DNA of 64,000 bases, from NCBI GenBank assembly GCA_030390025.1, contig CM059432.1, positions 13,952,001-14,016,000 of the forward strand, read 5' to 3'. Positions 2,345 to 42,938 of this stretch are shown in pieces. Below the pieces are notes generated by a model that worked only from the letters and a program-made list of their open reading frames with translations, made no database searches and had not been told where the DNA came from. This DNA comes from Squalus acanthias (taxonomy: Eukaryota). Position numbers and translations under genes: made by a program. Numbering within the stretch: position 1 is the stretch's first letter; each line of letters begins with the position of its first letter.

Positions 2345-3315
2345 TAGGGTGGGGGTTGTGGGTTGGGGCGGAGCGGTGTGTGGGCGAGTGGGCTGGGTGT
2401 GTGGGGATGGGCTGGGTGTGTGGGGATGGGGGAGTAGGCTGGGGGGGATGGGGGGCTGTGGGGGGAGTAGGGTGGGGGGGGCTGTGGGGGAGTAGGCTGG
2501 GGGGGTGGGGGATGGGCTGGGGGTGTTGGGAGGGTTGGGGGAGTAGGCTGGGGGGTGGGGGGCATGTGGGGGGATGGGAGGGTTGGGGGAGTAGGGTGGG
2601 GGGTGGGCTGGGGGGTGGGGTTGGGGGAGCAGGCTGGGGGTGGGCTGGGGGTGGGCTGGGGGGTGGGGTTGGGGGATTGGGGGATGGGAGGGTTGGGGGA
2701 GTAGGCTGGGCGGGTGGGGACGTGTGGGGGGATGGGCTGGGGGTTGGGGATGGGGTGGTTGGGGTCGTGTGGGGGTGGGGTTGGGTGATGGGGGGTTGGG
2801 GGAGTGGGCTGGGGGGTGGGGTTGGGGATGGGGGGGTTGGGGTCGTGTGGGGGTGGTGTTGGGGGATGGGGGGTTGGGGTTGGGTGATGGGGGGTTGGGG
2901 GAGTGGGCTGGGGGCTGGAGTTGGGTGATGGGGGGGTTGGGGTTGGGGATGGGGGGGTTGGGGTCGTGTGGGGGTGGGGTTGGGTGATGGGGATGGGCTG
3001 GGGGTTGGGGTTGGGGATGGGGGGGTTGGGGGAGTGGGCTGGGGGCGTGTGGGGGGATGGGCTGGGGGTTGGGGATGGGGGGATGGGCTGGGGGTTGGGG
3101 TTGGAGGATGGGGGGGTTGGGGGAGTGGGCTGGGGGCATGTGGGGGGATGGGCTGGGGGCTGGAGTTGGGGGAGTGGGCTGGGGGCGTGTGGGGGGATGG
3201 GCTGGGGGTTGGGGTTGGGGATGGGGGGTTGGGGGAGTGGGCTGGGTTCGTGTGGGGGGATGGGCTGGGGGGTGGGGTTGGGGGATGGGGGTTTGGGGTT
3301 GGGGCATGGTGGGCT
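2345..3315 (+). repeat. ~1-kb G-rich low-complexity minisatellite (dense G3-G7 runs, G-quadruplex-prone)
   Basis: Recurrent motifs gggatgggctggggg, ggggttgggg, gggggagtgggct, cgtgtggggg. Confidence 0.9.
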
Positions 3316-3520
3316 GCTCTGGTGTACCTACTGTCATTTTGTCAGTGGTTGCATCAGTTCCTGTAGCTGTTGAGTGATAGTCTCCAGAATGACGAGCGAC
3401 TGACTGCACTTGGAGCCAGTGATAATCCACAGCTGGTCACAGGGCTAGAACACGACCATTACTCAACATGTCGCCACAAAGCGAACCCTACTGACAATGA
3501 CTTTTTTGCTTTTATTCTAG

Positions 3521-3691
3521 GGCGTGCTGCACACTGTTGCGGGCTACCTAATGTACACAGCAATTAGCTTTAAATACGTTTTTGACTACCATGCTGATGA
3601 TGTGTACTGGTGCACGGCTGATATTGGATGGATTACTGGACACTCATACGTTGCCTATGGGCCACTGGCAAACGGTGCGACAAGTGTTCTA
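3521..3691 (+). CDS. ACSS2: ACSS2-family coding exon, [12 protein letters not shown]...[14 protein letters not shown]...GATSVL
   Basis: ttttattctag| acceptor, CTA|gtgagt donor, 171 nt; [11 protein letters not shown] motif of acetyl-CoA synthetases. Confidence 0.95.
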
Positions 3692-4807
3692 GTGAGTAGA
3701 AAAAAAATGAGAAGTCGCACAACACCAGTGAGTAGAGGCAGTATTCTGTGCATCTATCGGAGTAGGGAAGATGTTCTAAACAGGTTTAGTTAATATATAG
3801 AAGGTAAAAGCCCCCGTCTTGTTGAGGTACTTTATTCCCAATGCGGGTCTCGCTGGGCACGGCACCATCCCTGCCTGAGGGATAATCTACTCCCGGGCCG
3901 CTAGTCGATGTCATGCTCACATTATTATTTCATTCATTTTGGGTCATAAACAGCGCTAAAGATCTCAGGGTTCAGAACTGAAGAGTTAGAATCATGGAAT
4001 CATAGAATCATACCGCACAGGAGGAGGCCATTCGGCCCATCGTGCCTGGGCCGGCTCCCTGAGCGAGCTACCAATTAGTCCCACTCCCCCTGCTCTTTCC
4101 CCACAGCCCTGCAAATTTATAGAATCATTACAGCACTGTTGACATCCCATATACTAGAATTGTGAGATAGTTCTCTTTGGCTTCAGCTTACACCAAGCGA
4201 GTGTAACTGATTTTACACAACTTTTTAAACATGGATTTGTCAGAATAGAGAAGAAAGAAAGACTTGAATTTATATAGCGCCTTTCACGACCACCGGATGT
4301 CCCAAAGCACTTTACAGCCAATGAAGTACTACGCTGTAAGGGGCATGAGAGGAGGCCTGGGACAGACTAACAGGAGCATAACAGTACATTGGTGCTATCT
4401 TTACCCAGTGCCACACCTGGCTGATTCAGAATTTATAGTCTGAGATATTTAAGGGGGGGCTTGGCAGTGTCTCATGGGTGCAAAGCGGGGGAGCCTGGGG
4501 CAGCAGAGGCCCAGACTTTGCATTTGGTGTTCGGAGGAGTTCCCCTGCTGTTCCTGGCCCCACAAAGGTTTAAAGGCAGCCCCCTCAGTCATCAATTAAA
4601 ATGCCTTTGGGGTCCTAATGACATCATGGGACCCTGATTTGCATAATCAGGCAGGCGCATCGGCCGCCTAAACAAAGGGTCCAATTAAAGTGGCGGCAGG
4701 CGGGAATGGAGCGGGGCGGTAAGATTTTGGAGGTGATTATAACTGTGGGCCTGTTGGGCGGGGTGGGTTAAATAGCCTCCTTGGGCTCTGGTGATTATTG
4801 CACAGTT

Positions 4808-5260: not shown

Positions 5261-7182
5261 GGGGGTGGAATATATAAGGTTGGTGTGCATTACCAGTCAC
5301 CAAACAGTGGAGATAAGATTGATGTGGAGAGGAGATAGAGCTGGAATTCTGCAGAGTTCAGAGAGATAAGTAAGAGCAACGAGACAATAATATTACATGG
5401 TTTTAACTATTCCAAGATAGACTGGAGTAAATGTCATCTTTATGCTCAAAGTGGGGAACATGTTTTAGAATGCACGGGGCTGCTTCTTAGATCAGTATGT
5501 TTCTCTTCTAACAAGAAAAGAAGCATTGCTTGATTCACTTCTGGGAAATGAGGTGGGGCAAATAACTGGTGAGAGTAGGAGAACAATTAGGGAATAGTGA
5601 CCCCATCATTGCTAGCTTCAATGTAAAAATAGAAAAAGGATAACGAAGAATCAAAGAGAAGGTTGCTGGATTGTAAAAAGGCAAAGTTCAGCAAGGTAAG
5701 ATTGGATCTGGCCCAAATGAACTGGGCAGAAAAGCTAGAACATCAGAAACAGGAGCAGGAGTCGGCCATTCGGCCCCTCGAGCCTGCCCCGCCATTCCAT
5801 AAGATCATGGCTGATCTGATCTTGGCCTGAACGCCACTTTCCCGCCTGCTCCCCATAACCCTTGACTCCCCTGTAGCTCAAATATGTGCATAAGAAATAG
5901 GAAAAAGTTAACAAATGGGTCAACAGATTAACAGTGGGAGATCTTCAAATATCGGGTGGGTAGTGTACAGAATAAGTATATTCCTATAAGATGAAAAGAG
6001 CGTCATTGTGGAATAGTTCCATGGATAAAGAGAGATTAAAGCTTCTCTGTTCTATTGTGGCCATCAGCCATCCCTCCTGACATGAGGTACTAATGAAAAT
6101 GGAAGCATGGAGGATGTTATAAAAAAGATTGATAGGTCTCTATTTGACTCAGCGTAAACAAGCGGGAAAGATAAAATTAACGATACATTTGTGACTTCGC
6201 GCCATGCTGCCCGCCCAAAGCCAACGTCGGGAGTCTTGGAACCACTTGCGGTTTGGGCCTTATTTAAATGGCGACAGCTAGAAGCCAGCACCGAGCCAGC
6301 GCCCTGCGGTAGCGCGGCGACTGTGGCAGCACGGGAAATCGGCTGGCTCCCAAGGCTGAGCCGGCTGCTGGGTCTGGCCGGGAAGGCGATCGATCCCAGG
6401 GCTGGCAGTTTTTTGTGGGCCTGGAGGTAGCACTGTGCTCCTACTGACCCCACCAAAATTTTTTTAAAAATGAAACATTTCTTTGGCTGTTTTCTGAGTG
6501 CCCCTCCGGCAGTCCATAAAGAGACGCGCAATGCCTGGTGAAAATGGCCAGAGCGTGCGCGGCCTATTTATAGGCCCGCCTGAAAAGTGCGTCCAGTGGG
6601 CCTTGGGCGTCAGTGGGGCAGCTGAGGTGCCCTCCCTGCCCCGTCCCTGATTTTCAACTACCGGCTGCCTGTGAGAAACGGCGGTGGAAAATGGCCCCCA
6701 TAACTCAGAATTACTATTGGGCAGGTCGGGCACAGCAGTCCCAACGAGTGTTTGTATCCTCTACTTTATTTCTATGTTCTCCAAATATATCCTGGCAAAT
6801 TTAAGTAATAGAAGCAGATTCGCACATTTCTACTTTTTAAAAAAATCATACAAAAAGAAACAGCGGAACATAGCCAAATAAAAGAGTCAGCAACAGTAAT
6901 ATTTATTTTTTCTTTTCCTTGGATCTCCCTATGCCAGGCCTAATTTTTTTGAGCGAGAAGGCAGGCAGACAACCTGCTCCCAGTGCTCTGCAAATGGTCT
7001 TCTATACGAGAAGATCCCCTGGTAGGGGGAGGAGGTGACTCACCCTTCAGTATTCCCTCCCAATCTGCGGGAGTAGTCTGACTGTGGCTACTTGGCACGT
7101 CGCTTCACGGCCCGGCTGAAATTCTCAATGCCCAAAATCGCAGGATCCACCTCTCCCCACCCCCCCCCCCCCCCCCGCCTAG

Positions 7183-7518
7183 TTTTTTTTTTCGTTTATG
7201 GGACATGGGCGTTGCTGGCAAGGCCAGCATTTATTGCCCATCCCTAGTTGCCCTTGAGAAGGTGGTGGTGAGCCGCCTTGTTGAACCGCTGCAGTCCGTG
7301 TGGTGAAGGTACTCCCACAGTGCTGTTAGGGAGGGTGTTCCAGGATTTTGACCCAGTGACGATGAAGGATCGGCCGATATATTTCCAAGTCAGGATGGTG
7401 TGTGACTTGGAGGGGAACTTGGAGGTGGTGGTGTTCCCATGCGCCTGCTGCCCTTGACCTTCTAGGTGGAAGAGGTCGCGGGTTTGGGAGGTGCTGCCGG
7501 AGAAGTCTTGGCGAGTTG
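7183..7518 (-). mobile_element. 3' end of a CR1/L2-superfamily LINE (second family)
   Basis: Near-identical to 47053-47385. Confidence 0.75.
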
Positions 7519-7670
7519 ATTTGTGATTGGGTTGAGAGGATTAACGCCAGAAGCCTAGCAACAAAACCTCAGGACAGTGTTGCCAGATTTGAGAAAGAAA
7601 AAAAAAATATGCACATGAATAGGATGATTTTCCAACAAATACGTTCTCAGTAAATTTCTCTCTGTTTTAG

Positions 7671-7804
7671 TTTGAAGGTCTGCTGCTGTATCCACACGTG
7701 GGGAGGTTGTACGAAATGATTGAAAAGTATAAAGTGACCAAGCTTTACACAGCGCCCACGGTCATTAGAATGCTGATGAAGTTTGGAGAGGAACCCGTGA
7801 GAAA
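7671..7804 (+). CDS. ACSS2: ACSS2-family coding exon, FEGLLLYPHVGRLYEMIEKYKVTKLYTAPTVIRMLMKFGEEPVR(K)
   Basis: ctgttttag| acceptor, AA|gtaagg donor, 134 nt; matches the ACS FEG..YP..R.....KYKVT..YTAPT.IR.LMKFG segment; not in the ORF track, translated manually. Confidence 0.93.
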
Positions 7805-8493
7805 GTAAGGAACTTAGGAATGGGATATCCATTTGTATGTATAATACATAGAGCGGGGGAATGGGACTGACTGGATTGCTCTACAGAGAGCCGGCACGGA
7901 CTCGATGGGTCGAATGGCCTCCTTCTGAGTCGTTATGACTCTGACATTCATAGCACGAACAGTAAAACACAGTGTCCATGGGTTAGAAATGCCATTGAAC
8001 TAAGGTATGCCAAGGACCCATATCCTTAGCTACCGCAATTTTACAGTGTTCTGGAGCACCTTGTGGAATGATCCATCGAAGCAAAGTGCGCCTGTATTCT
8101 CTCCTTACTGCAAATCTTATGTGAATGTGAATCTTATCTTTCCAGTTCAACACTGGCTGAATGACTTGCTGTGCATTCCTGCAATTCTGTTTTTCATGCC
8201 CAATGCTTTCTTTCCTCTCTATTGCAAGTATTTCAAAAAACCCAAATTGCCGATGAAAGGTCACCTAAAACGTAAACCTGTCTTTTCTCTTTCAGGTGCA
8301 GATGGACCTCCTGCACCTGACCAGCGTTTTCATATTTTCATTTCAGTTTCCAGCAGAAAGGGTTTTTTTTTTCTTCTTCTTCTTAATCCAAATTTCTGCT
8401 ACATTGGAACTTATCGTTTTGGGTATTTTACGTGATTTAAAAATCCTCCTTTCCCTTCGTAAGGTGTTCTTTTTCACTTTTTGACTGCATCAG

Positions 8494-29570: not shown

Positions 29571-29846
29571 AACTGTCAGATTGTTGTAAAAATCCAACTG
29601 GCTCACTAATGTCCTTTAGGGAAGGAAATCTGCCATTCTTACCTGGTCTGGCCTAGATGTGACTCCAGACCCAGAGCAATGTGGTTGACTCTTAGCTGAG
29701 TGGCGTAGCAATCCTCTCAGTTGTATCAAACCACAACAAAGAAAAAACACCACATAGACTGCAGCAGTTCAAAGGCAACGAGGAATGGGCAATAAATGCT
29801 GCCCTTGCCAGTGATGCCCACATCCCAAGAATGAATTTTAAAAGTA

Positions 29847-30641
29847 CACTGTTCACCTTTACACATCGCAGTGTGCACCGTTCACCTTTACACATCGCAG
29901 TGTGCACTGTTCACCTTTACACATCACAGTGTGCACCGTTCACCTTTACACATCTCAGTGTGCACTGTTCACCTTTACACATCGCAGTGTGCACTGTTCA
30001 CCTTTACACATCGCAGTGTGCACTGTTCACCTTTATGTACCACAGTGTGCACCGTTCACCTTTACACATCGCAGTGTGCACTGTTCACTTTTACACATCA
30101 CAGTGTGCACTGTTCACCTTTACACATCACAGTGTGCACCGTTCACCTTTACACATCACAGTGTGCACTGTTCACCTTTACACATCGCAGTGTGCACTGT
30201 TCACCTTTATGTACCACAGTGTGCACCGTTCACCTTTACACATCTCAGTGTGCACCGTTCACCTTTACACATCGCAGTGTGCACTGTTCACTTTTACACA
30301 TCACAGTGTGCACCGTTCACCTTTACACATCGCAGTGTGCACTGTTCACCTTTACACATCACAGTGTGCACCGTTCACTTTTACACATCGCAGTGTGCAC
30401 TGTTCACCTTTACACATCACAGTGTGCACTGTTCACCTTTACACATCGCAGTGTGCACTGTTCACCTTTACACATCGCAGTGTGCACTGTTCACCTTTAC
30501 ACATCGCAGTGTGCACTGTTCACCTTTACACATCACAGTGTGCACTGTTCACCTTTACACATCACAGTGTGCACTGTTCACCTTTACACATCGCAGTGTG
30601 CACTGTTCACCTTTACACATCGCAGTGTGCACTGTTCACCT
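29847..30641 (+). repeat. Minisatellite, 29-bp unit CACTGTTCACCTTTACACATCGCAGTGTG, ~27.4 copies
   Basis: Exact 29-nt period (unit starts at 29847, 29876 ... 30601) with few variant positions. Confidence 0.97.
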
Positions 30642-30940
30642 GTAATTGAGTAATGGTGTGGGGGTCGGAGCGGGTGGGGGTGTAAGGCGGAGTTCATGGC
30701 TTTTTTTTAAGCGCTGTCAATGATTTAGCTTCAACTGGAATAATGCTGGACTGATTTGAACAGAAGCAACAGCATCCTGTGTGATTAATTTGTGAACCAT
30801 GAATGTGACTTAACGTGACATTTAAACGTGATCATTGTTTTTGTTTTACAATTTATCAGCTTACACGGATATGTAATCAAGCAGCTTCTTTTGCAGCTGA
30901 CTGACTGTCACTGTTGCTCACAGAAAGATTTGTTGTGCAG

Positions 30941-31009
30941 GTTGCAGGAGAGATGGAGATGGCTATTACTGGGTCACTGGAAGGATAGATGATATGCTGA
31001 ATGTCTCAG
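30941..31009 (+). CDS. ACSS2: ACSS2-family coding exon, (S)[22 protein letters not shown](G)
   Basis: tgttgtgcag| acceptor, TCAG|gtagag donor, 69 nt; A8 hinge motif GRIDD.LNVSG. Confidence 0.94.
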
Positions 31010-41620: not shown

Positions 41621-42049
41621 TAGCACAGTTGTCTGCTTCGTGTGACAAACTGGTGATATGTGAAAGATCTGCTGCTTAAACTCAACTGCATACTGAAGGA
41701 AACAAAGAAAGACTTGCATTTATATAGCGCCTTTCATGACATCAGGACATCCCAAAGCACTTTACAGCCAATTAAGTACTTTTGAAGTGTAGTCACTGTT
41801 GTAATGTAGGAAACATGGCAGCCAATTTGCGCACAGCAAGCTCCCACAAACAGCAATGTGATAATGACCAGATAATCTGCTTTTAGCGATGTTGGTTGAA
41901 GGATAAATATTGACCAGGTCACCGGGGAGAACTCTCTTGCTCTTCTTTGAATAGTGGTCATGATGCGGAGATGCCGGTGTTGGACTGGGGTAGACAAAAA
42001 TGAGAAGTCGCACAACACCAGGTTATAGTCCAACAGTTTTATTTGAAAT

Positions 42050-42084
42050 CACGAGCTTTCGGAGCTCTGCTCCTTCGTCAGGTA
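42050..42084 (-). ncRNA. Minimal type I hammerhead ribozyme motif (mirror copy)
   Basis: Reverse complement reads tac-CTGACGA-a-GGAGC-aga-GCTCC-GAAA-gctc-gtg. Confidence 0.68.
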
Positions 42085-42607
42085 CAGTGAGGGAATACAA
42101 ATCGATTACAAAGTATATATAGACAGAGAACAATGTGTCTGCAGAGATACAATCCGTCAGGGAGGCATTACATCAAAGACACAGCAGAGTACAGCTAAGA
42201 CAATGAGGTGGGTCACAGGGGGTCCAACGTGTCAAATGCTGCAGTCTGCAGTTAAGCTTTTAACTTTTTTTTAAAACTGGAAATCATACCTGTGAACCAG
42301 ACAACGATGTCGAGTCACGTCCTGTAGCGTGACATGAAACCGGGATCTCGGTTTCATGTCACGCTACAGAACGTGACTCGACATCGTTGTCTGGTTTACA
42401 GGTGTGATTTCCAGTTTTTAAAAAAAAGTTAAAAGCTTAACTGCAGACTGCAGCATTTGACACGTTGGACCCCCTGTGACCCACCTCATTGTCTTAGCTG
42501 TACTCTGCTGTGTCTTTGATGTAATGCCTCCCTGACGGATTGTATCTCTGCAGACACATTGTTCTCTGTCTATATATACTTTGTAATCGATTTGTATTCC
42601 CTCACTG

Positions 42608-42642
42608 TACCTGACGAAGGAGCAGAGCTCCGAAAGCTCGTA
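42608..42642 (+). ncRNA. Minimal type I hammerhead ribozyme motif
   Basis: tac-CTGACGA-a-GGAGC-aga-GCTCC-GAAA-gctc-gta: both core boxes, stem II, 3-bp stem I. Confidence 0.7.
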
Positions 42643-42938
42643 ATTTCAAATAAAACTGTTGGACTATAACCTGGTGTTGTGCGACTTCTCTTCTTTGAAT
42701 AGGGCCATGGGATCCTTTATGTCCACCTGAGAGAGCAGACAGGGCCTTGTTTTAATGTATCATCCAAAAGATGGCACCTCCAACATTGCAGCACTCCCTC
42801 AGTACTGCACTGGAGGGTCAGCCTAGATGTTGTGGCTCCAGCCTCTGGAGGGAGGGGTTGAACCATCAACCTTCTGATTCAGAGGCGAGAGTGCTACCAA
42901 CTAAGCCACGGTTATCCACTTTGTGGCAAATATTAGTA

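Follow-up and report, generated by a model that had tools for sequence, protein, structure and literature searches.

A short Penelope-like insertion, probably young and polymorphic, offers acss2l a second in-frame splice donor in Squalus acanthias

Splice signals produced by target-site duplication are a known kind, represented by transposon footprints, maize Ds at shrunken-2 and introner elements. A literature search of partial coverage found no precedent for a retroelement whose target-site duplication (TSD) doubles a splice donor in frame. Penelope-like elements (PLEs) generate TSDs of 8–10 bp with microhomology at their 5′ junctions, according to the available text of PMC3846280, and the accessible part of PMC8557442 describes an optional tail and inverted copies. 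In an anole PLE, reverse transcription starts at either of two neighbouring sites, which accounts for the optional tail (PMC11167929, available sections). Competition between two globin donors in HeLa cells is the subject of PMC3413131, the accessible portion of which reports that use of the downstream site climbs rapidly beyond about 30 nt of separation and reaches about 100% from 45 nt. The papers listed for acss2l and zebrafish are expression surveys, as judged from titles and the first lines of abstracts.

The window analysed here is a stretch of 64,000 nt, and all positions without a locus label refer to it. It contains an acss2l exon that is followed by two donors with the same intronic sequence. 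In the best reading, to which a probability of about 0.68 is given, a recent and likely segregating PLE stump has doubled the acss2l donor, and the filled allele would yield both normal transcripts and transcripts with 12 additional codons (the +12 form), the product of which is predicted to be impaired and not retargeted to the nucleus. The allele is probably neutral to mildly harmful.

The coding exon (GVLHT...GATSVL, 171 nt, 3521–3691, plus strand) contains the AMP-binding domain, is 93% identical to residues 302–358 of Carcharodon acss2l and ends at the ancestral donor, CTA/GTGAGTAG (3689–3699, plus strand, GT at 3692). The 10-mer AGTGAGTAGA is found on the plus strand at 3691–3700 and again at 3727–3736, and nowhere else on either strand of the window. 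These are the two copies of the putative TSD, of which the empty site presented below has a single one. They are separated by 26 nt (3701–3726), the letters of which agree with those given in an earlier reading of the sequence alone (the sequence-only reading), and which form the candidate PLE stump, a tail-less 3′ end in minus orientation, antisense to acss2l, whose A-run exceeds the usual five. The second repeat brings with it the new donor, CCA/GTGAGTAG (3725–3735, plus strand, GT at 3728), located 36 nt downstream of the first and in the same frame. The frame is kept because 26 and 10 nt add up to 36 and the stump is open in that frame. The potential exon extension (3692–3727, plus strand) is free of stops and encodes 12 residues, of which 5 are basic, rather than the 12 basic residues announced in the sequence-only reading. 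The next exon (FEGLLL..., 7671–7804, plus strand) starts at the common acceptor, with its AG at 7669–7670, and is 100% identical to residues 359–403 of Carcharodon acss2l. In other respects the sequence-only description of the site was verified: a 10-mer flanking a 26-nt insert, and matching donors 36 nt apart, the second in frame and without a stop.

The longest string common to the stump and a longer copy elsewhere in the window is 26 nt (3703–3728, identical to 41996–42021), and its last two letters, AG, double as the first two of the second 10-bp repeat. A 24-mer of the stump has three matches in the window (3703, 41996, and 42673–42696 on the minus strand with two mismatches) and none in 100 shuffled sequences. 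The longer copy is a head-to-head pair (41960–42697, orientation not assigned) with palindrome arms at 41995–42276 and 42416–42697, and only its left arm bears a further tail of about 35 nt (about 41960–41994). This tail means that the stump begins at the tail-less end of the family. The sequence-only reading had placed the match, 41996–42020, at the terminus of the palindrome; the recurrence holds, and extends to 42021, but the outermost terminus lies beyond it. The head-to-head copy serves as the reference for the stump and is a member of the same family, though not necessarily its source copy. It is nested in another repeat, with an apparent flanking duplication of about 15 bp, CTCTTCTTTGAATAG (41945–41960 and 42692–42706, approximate and read by eye).

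The family is abundant and homogeneous. A search with the 136-nt end of the long copy returned 614 candidates genome-wide, and the 41 matches listed are 99–100% identical. A 22-mer of the family end has 28,356 exact occurrences in the genome, compared with none for the reversed control, and the stump agrees with this end without a change, which was one of the checks of origin proposed in the sequence-only reading. Six or more A are carried by 893 family ends, as by the stump. Tailed ends, with a further 35–40 nt or so, coexist with tail-less ends that stop at the A-run (loci L001–L030); the loci examined comprise 20 distinct tailed and 90 distinct tail-less ends. A long copy (L092:2003–4093, minus strand) has a stop-free frame of 697 residues with a match to the reverse transcriptase family RVT_1 at 35 bits (Pfam cut-off 29.6), and the stop of this frame and the family end are about 340 nt apart. 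Four shorter frames of the family gave two weak matches and two blanks in Pfam. The C-terminal part of the 697-residue frame contains VVYLIRC...WYIGET, which resembles GIY-YIG when read by eye, while Pfam called no GIY-YIG family (E 0.1). A hammerhead-like core, CTGACGA...GAAA with a hairpin between, is likewise read by eye at 42611–42635 of the head-to-head copy; in Rfam, no hammerhead was returned, and the 8 hairpin matches were all below threshold. Inverted copies and the optional tail of 30–40 nt are both present in the stump's family, as seen in the palindrome (41995–42697). By its reverse transcriptase, inverted copies, optional tail and short TSD, the parent family would be of the endonuclease-bearing Penelope-like type.

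The gene had been named ACSS2 in the sequence-only reading; the tree and the identities make it acss2l. The best named matches of the exon are proteins called ACSS2-like. The genome contains two ACSS2-type loci, the window gene on C8 and a less similar paralogue on C11, as well as two loci on C1 and C12 that are more remote still. In a tree of three exons (29 rows and 146 columns, mammalian sequences not being among the rows, and deeper forks unsettled), the window gene groups with acss2l of sharks and rays with support of 100/100, and the C11 paralogue groups with cytoplasmic proteins of 699 residues from the teleosts Megalops and Triplophysa (98/91). Over these exons, identity to shark and ray acss2l is 93–97% for the window gene versus 75–79% for the C11 gene, which is the ACSS2-type paralogue. 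Eleven exons in the window encode 423 codons without a stop, and 409 of the 423 residues agree with Carcharodon acss2l; use of the downstream donor would raise the count to 435 codons and leave the frame open. Retention of the intron would lead to a stop after 33 codons. The C11 gene has an intron at the same codon, which identifies 3692 as the ancestral donor position.

Two further features of the gene were noted. The exon preceding the one studied (1647–1784) ends in a GC donor, AAG/GCAAGT, which makes the intervening intron of the GC-AG type, and the frame stays open with the edge at 1784/1785. A tandem array of about 1 kb with a period of 29 nt (29728–30781) stops just ahead of the acss2l exon at 30941.

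The match to U1 was scored by a plain tally of agreement with the textbook consensus, with a maximum of 11. Both donors score 7.5 with an identical pattern, within the span of 5 to 8.5 of the other GT donors of acss2l, and they are the top two of the five GT sites scoring at least 6 within 3620–3800. Both are expected to be used because the U1 match is equal and the spacing is 36 nt, which lies between about 30 and 45 nt and falls in the transition zone of the rule drawn from the available text of PMC3413131. With only modest assurance, the downstream donor is expected to carry at least 10% of the transcripts of the filled allele.

The strongest alternative, a serious one rated somewhat below even odds, accepts the same origin but supposes that nearly all transcripts use the upstream donor, so that the stump leaves with the intron. 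It draws on a predicted hairpin in which exon positions 3676–3682 pair with 3713–3719 of the insert, the outer stem covering positions −3 to +3 of the new donor (z = −2.0, with 7 of 200 shuffles as good). In all five folding windows at 37 °C, the predicted unpaired probability is 0.49–0.53 for the upstream donor, against 0.26–0.33 for the downstream one. The upstream donor is thereby predicted to be more open than the new donor, and also more open than the single donor of the empty site, and a spacing of 36 nt does not reach the 45 nt needed for complete use of the downstream site (PMC3413131, available text). The equality of the U1 match argues in the other direction, as does the openness of the empty-site donor (0.26–0.36), which is about that of the new one, so that the new donor is predicted to be no less accessible than the donor that served before the insertion. 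The extension is also free of stops, so that the longer message is not predicted to undergo decay.

Two runs guessed to be RNA were inspected for splicing. One of them, X6, has a contig over 3519–3677 that continues upstream as a spliced contig would. In both X6 and X21, the depth was 0 across 7539–7695, and among the contigs listed none spans the donor or 7671–7695. A record of X21 (record 15, depth 2.6) covers 7702–7806 with 29 leading letters that misfit 7673–7701; either a minor acceptor close to 7705 or a chimeric contig could explain it.

The preferred reading, in which both donors are used on a recent allele, leads to the question of age. Words sampled from 3400–4000 were complete in none of the 22 runs listed, the best runs reaching 0.82, and none of those listed is recorded as RNA. 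The first record of the DNA run X1 (743 nt, depth 7.6) aligns to 3306–3690 and to 3727–4032 at contiguous record positions, with three differing letters. It is without exactly the 36 nt, and has a single donor. The two sequences differ at 3 of 691 letters at the site (99.6% identity) and at 19 of 1313 further along the intron. An empty site with a single repeat, which the sequence-only reading had proposed to look for in a related shark, was found instead in this near-identical run. Assembled contigs drop variants and are evidence of presence, not of absence, and the X1 record is compatible with a filled allele in the same animal. Among the pieces listed, the runs compared so far gave the empty site in X1 and no record of the filled allele; those listed from X5, out of 55/100 of the run, included none on the exon. 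A strict first search of the genome returned no second copy of the exon from another haplotype. In a neighbouring part of the intron (5917–7227), each of two DNA runs shows 17–19 differences from the window in about 1.3 kb, many of them common to both, which indicates that the assembled haplotype is rather divergent near the insertion.

Because an empty site exists, the repeats are unchanged and the family is homogeneous, the insertion is probably young and polymorphic, as far as can be told from the sequences compared. The exact before-state of the insertion is seen, and this is new with respect to the sequence-only reading, which had not considered a young, segregating allele. An old and fixed insertion, with the empty site of X1 produced by deletion between the 10-bp repeats or with X1 representing a sister species, is unlikely. 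Direct repeats do permit a precise loss of this sort, but the two repeats are identical, the stump has no change relative to the family end, and the family itself is very homogeneous, none of which speaks for age.

The case for a young PLE insertion also depends on whether the 10-bp repeat is a genuine TSD. Thirty loci selected because they depart from the family sequence beyond ...CACCAG had given 0/30, but most of them were long or tailed copies bearing a substitution and do not represent the class in question. The test was then run on the first 30 of the 893 A-extended ends, with 870 mismatched pairs of flanks as the control. A repeat of at least 7 bp at both ends of the element was found for 13 of the 30 copies versus 18 of the 870 mismatched pairs, and 11 of the 13 duplications span 10–15 bp. 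As at the acss2l site, the first copy of the repeat mostly ends within the A-run. Stumps as short as that of acss2l are scarce. A search pattern matching tail-less ends truncated just behind ...CACC, estimated to catch about half of such stumps, returned 15 sites including acss2l, compared with 28,356 family ends. A repeat within 60 nt was present at 2 of the 14 other sites and at 11 of 210 controls, a frequency not clearly above the control. Locus L093 is an independent micro-insertion with a stop base identical to that of the acss2l stump and a 10-bp repeat. Several loci (L093 with L100; L109 with L110; and L111, L123, L124 and L125) form groups in which separate insertions of different lengths entered a shared repeated target at an identical position; they represent hot spots inside other repeats.

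The letters at the junction were also compared. AG or AGT precedes the A-run at 26 of the 90 tail-less ends, compared with a background of 12% (p ~1e-5, for a sample chosen by patterns and a background drawn from the same loci), and the same holds for acss2l. Thirty-one family ends sit 0–6 nt behind GTRAGT, and the hexamer lies within the best repeat at 22 of the 30 ends fetched, acss2l included, a count without a control. For 16 of the 29 other GTRAGT loci, 19 upstream frames yielded no host-gene domain above the cut-off, a weak test given that the frames are short; their matches were to reverse transcriptase and, weakly, to GDSL/OSK. Since the junction bias overlaps the donor hexamer, doublings of donors are to be expected as a by-product in shark genomes. 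Altogether, the start at the tail-less end, the junction and repeat length of the family type, and the existence of the empty site support the truncated PLE insertion with TSD that the sequence-only reading had proposed.

The anatomy of the site suggests the following course of events. The endonuclease of the element would nick the plus strand after ...GTGAGTAGA, and the nicked 3′ end would prime reverse transcription on the RNA at its tail-less start site, marked by a U-run, with a slippage of two or three A. Synthesis would halt after about 26 nt, and the product would be joined to the opposite staggered end by means of the 2-nt overlap (AG). Filling in the stagger would then duplicate the 10 bp, which comprise donor positions −1 to +9. 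It is improbable that the site arose without endonuclease-led insertion, through repair of a staggered break with a fragment of element cDNA or RNA, or that it is an artefact of assembly. The rarity of such short stumps (15 pattern sites) and the lack of the filled allele among the listed pieces of the compared runs would suit these alternatives. The tail-less start, the overlap at the A-run, the repeat length and the AG before the A-run are those of ordinary insertions of the family, and an artefact is not expected to copy this anatomy.

With a young PLE insertion retained as the origin, the consequence of using the second donor was considered on a structure model of the Carcharodon protein, which is 97% identical. 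A first fold from 48 aligned rows had low confidence around the junction (pLDDT about 41) and gave way to a model from 120 rows, with a mean pLDDT of 92.9. The modelled fold agrees with solved acetyl-CoA synthetases. Residues 355–359 form a predicted β-strand, and the junction between residues 358 and 359 lies one residue before its end; the 12 residues would enter between L and F of T-S-V-L-F-E-G. The insertion therefore falls at the end of a predicted strand and in no known loop, at odds with the NLS-like loop of the sequence-only reading. The alignment with Salmonella Acs is free of gaps at the junction (M329/F330). Among the 120 rows, F or Y is found at position 359 in 96, followed by E in 98 and G in 94. 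The spacing is constant in all 103 motif matches of near homologues (102 of 120 proteins, the other 18 being without a match) and exact in 140 of 150 distant homologues, of which eight were not aligned, one has +5 and one −1. From alignment and model, the insertion point appears to be one that hardly tolerates insertions or deletions, and the +12 form is predicted to be impaired. A strand end beside a turn can sometimes accept an insert. The residues just after FEG (the P334 region) presumably contact CoA; a literature search of partial coverage returned no report of this contact.

The sequence-only reading had drawn a parallel with the shuttling of ACSS2 to the nucleus, and in mammals nuclear import of ACSS2 follows phosphorylation of S659 (PMC9221533, accessible text). 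The parallel is weak, as the gene is acss2l and the basic motif of the extension is a reading of the A-run. This motif, KKMR, fits by eye the classical monopartite consensus of nuclear localization signals, K(K/R)X(K/R), and is there because the A-run of the element reads so in this frame. A basic C-terminal stretch, PKTRSGKIMRR, which we take to be the carrier of the nuclear signal of mammalian ACSS2, occurs in the window gene and in one distant homologue; as it is already in the window gene, the parallel needs no new signal. The ACSS2/NLS reading is mostly not supported. That the downstream donor yields a working enzyme whose new basic loop acts as a nuclear import signal is very improbable: the extension is in frame and stop-free, KKMR fits the consensus, the insert starts with a V able to complete the strand and mammalian ACSS2 does enter the nucleus after S659 phosphorylation, but the gene is acss2l, an empty site in a near-identical genome speaks against an established isoform, and the strand is intolerant of insertions and deletions. 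Just as remote is the variant in which the still-segregating stump gives acss2l a new exon end and, in carriers only, an active +12 form that is directed to the nucleus by the signal encoded in the A-run; it would be an alternative exon end caught at birth, with a nuclear acetyl-CoA synthetase in carriers and none in non-carriers.

With the preferred reading of a doubled donor and an impaired +12 form, the site is what a very active element would ordinarily produce, the frame being kept by luck. It provides one clean and datable case of a TSD that doubles a donor in frame, with the before-state in hand, and a natural setting for testing how donors compete when they are 36 nt apart, the switch spacing of the reporters, in a living non-mammalian gene. 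It has little bearing on the biology of ACSS2 unless the +12 form exists and works.

The features that the family of the stump shares with PLEs of the Penelope/Poseidon type, as these are described in the available texts of PMC11167929, PMC8557442 and PMC3846280, are the reverse transcriptase, heavy 5′ truncation, inverted copies, an optional tail of 30–40 nt, a short TSD and 5′ microhomology; the C-terminal GIY-YIG-like motif and the hammerhead-like core, both read by eye, are candidates for two more. The acss2l copy differs in being just 26 nt long and single-armed, with a TSD that happens to hold a splice donor. As in the reporter RNAs with duplicated 5′ splice sites (PMC3413131, available text), donors of equal U1 match precede one acceptor; those reporters were globin constructs in HeLa cells, whereas the acss2l pair is natural, 36 nt apart, in a cold-blooded vertebrate, and known from sequence alone. 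With mammalian ACSS2, for which nuclear shuttling has been described, the window gene shares the enzyme family and the fold, and with the ACSS2-type paralogue on C11 it shares the intron position while standing in a separate group of the tree. It is acss2l, a gene that occurs in sharks, rays, fishes and amphibians, and not of the ACSS2 type. The closest parallel in the same genome is a second doubled donor (L138:694–773; G000:C8, about 52,559,490–52,559,570), where a 14-bp repeat, AAGGAAAG/GTAAAT, occurs twice, with a 52-nt insert between. Both sites have a short insert and a direct repeat that contains an exon-end donor; at L138, the donors are 66 nt apart and the insert is of another sequence.

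In maize Ds and introners, likewise, a target duplication gives rise to a new or second splice signal or contributes extra codons in frame. At acss2l, by comparison, the stump remains in place and the donor alone is doubled, with no new intron.
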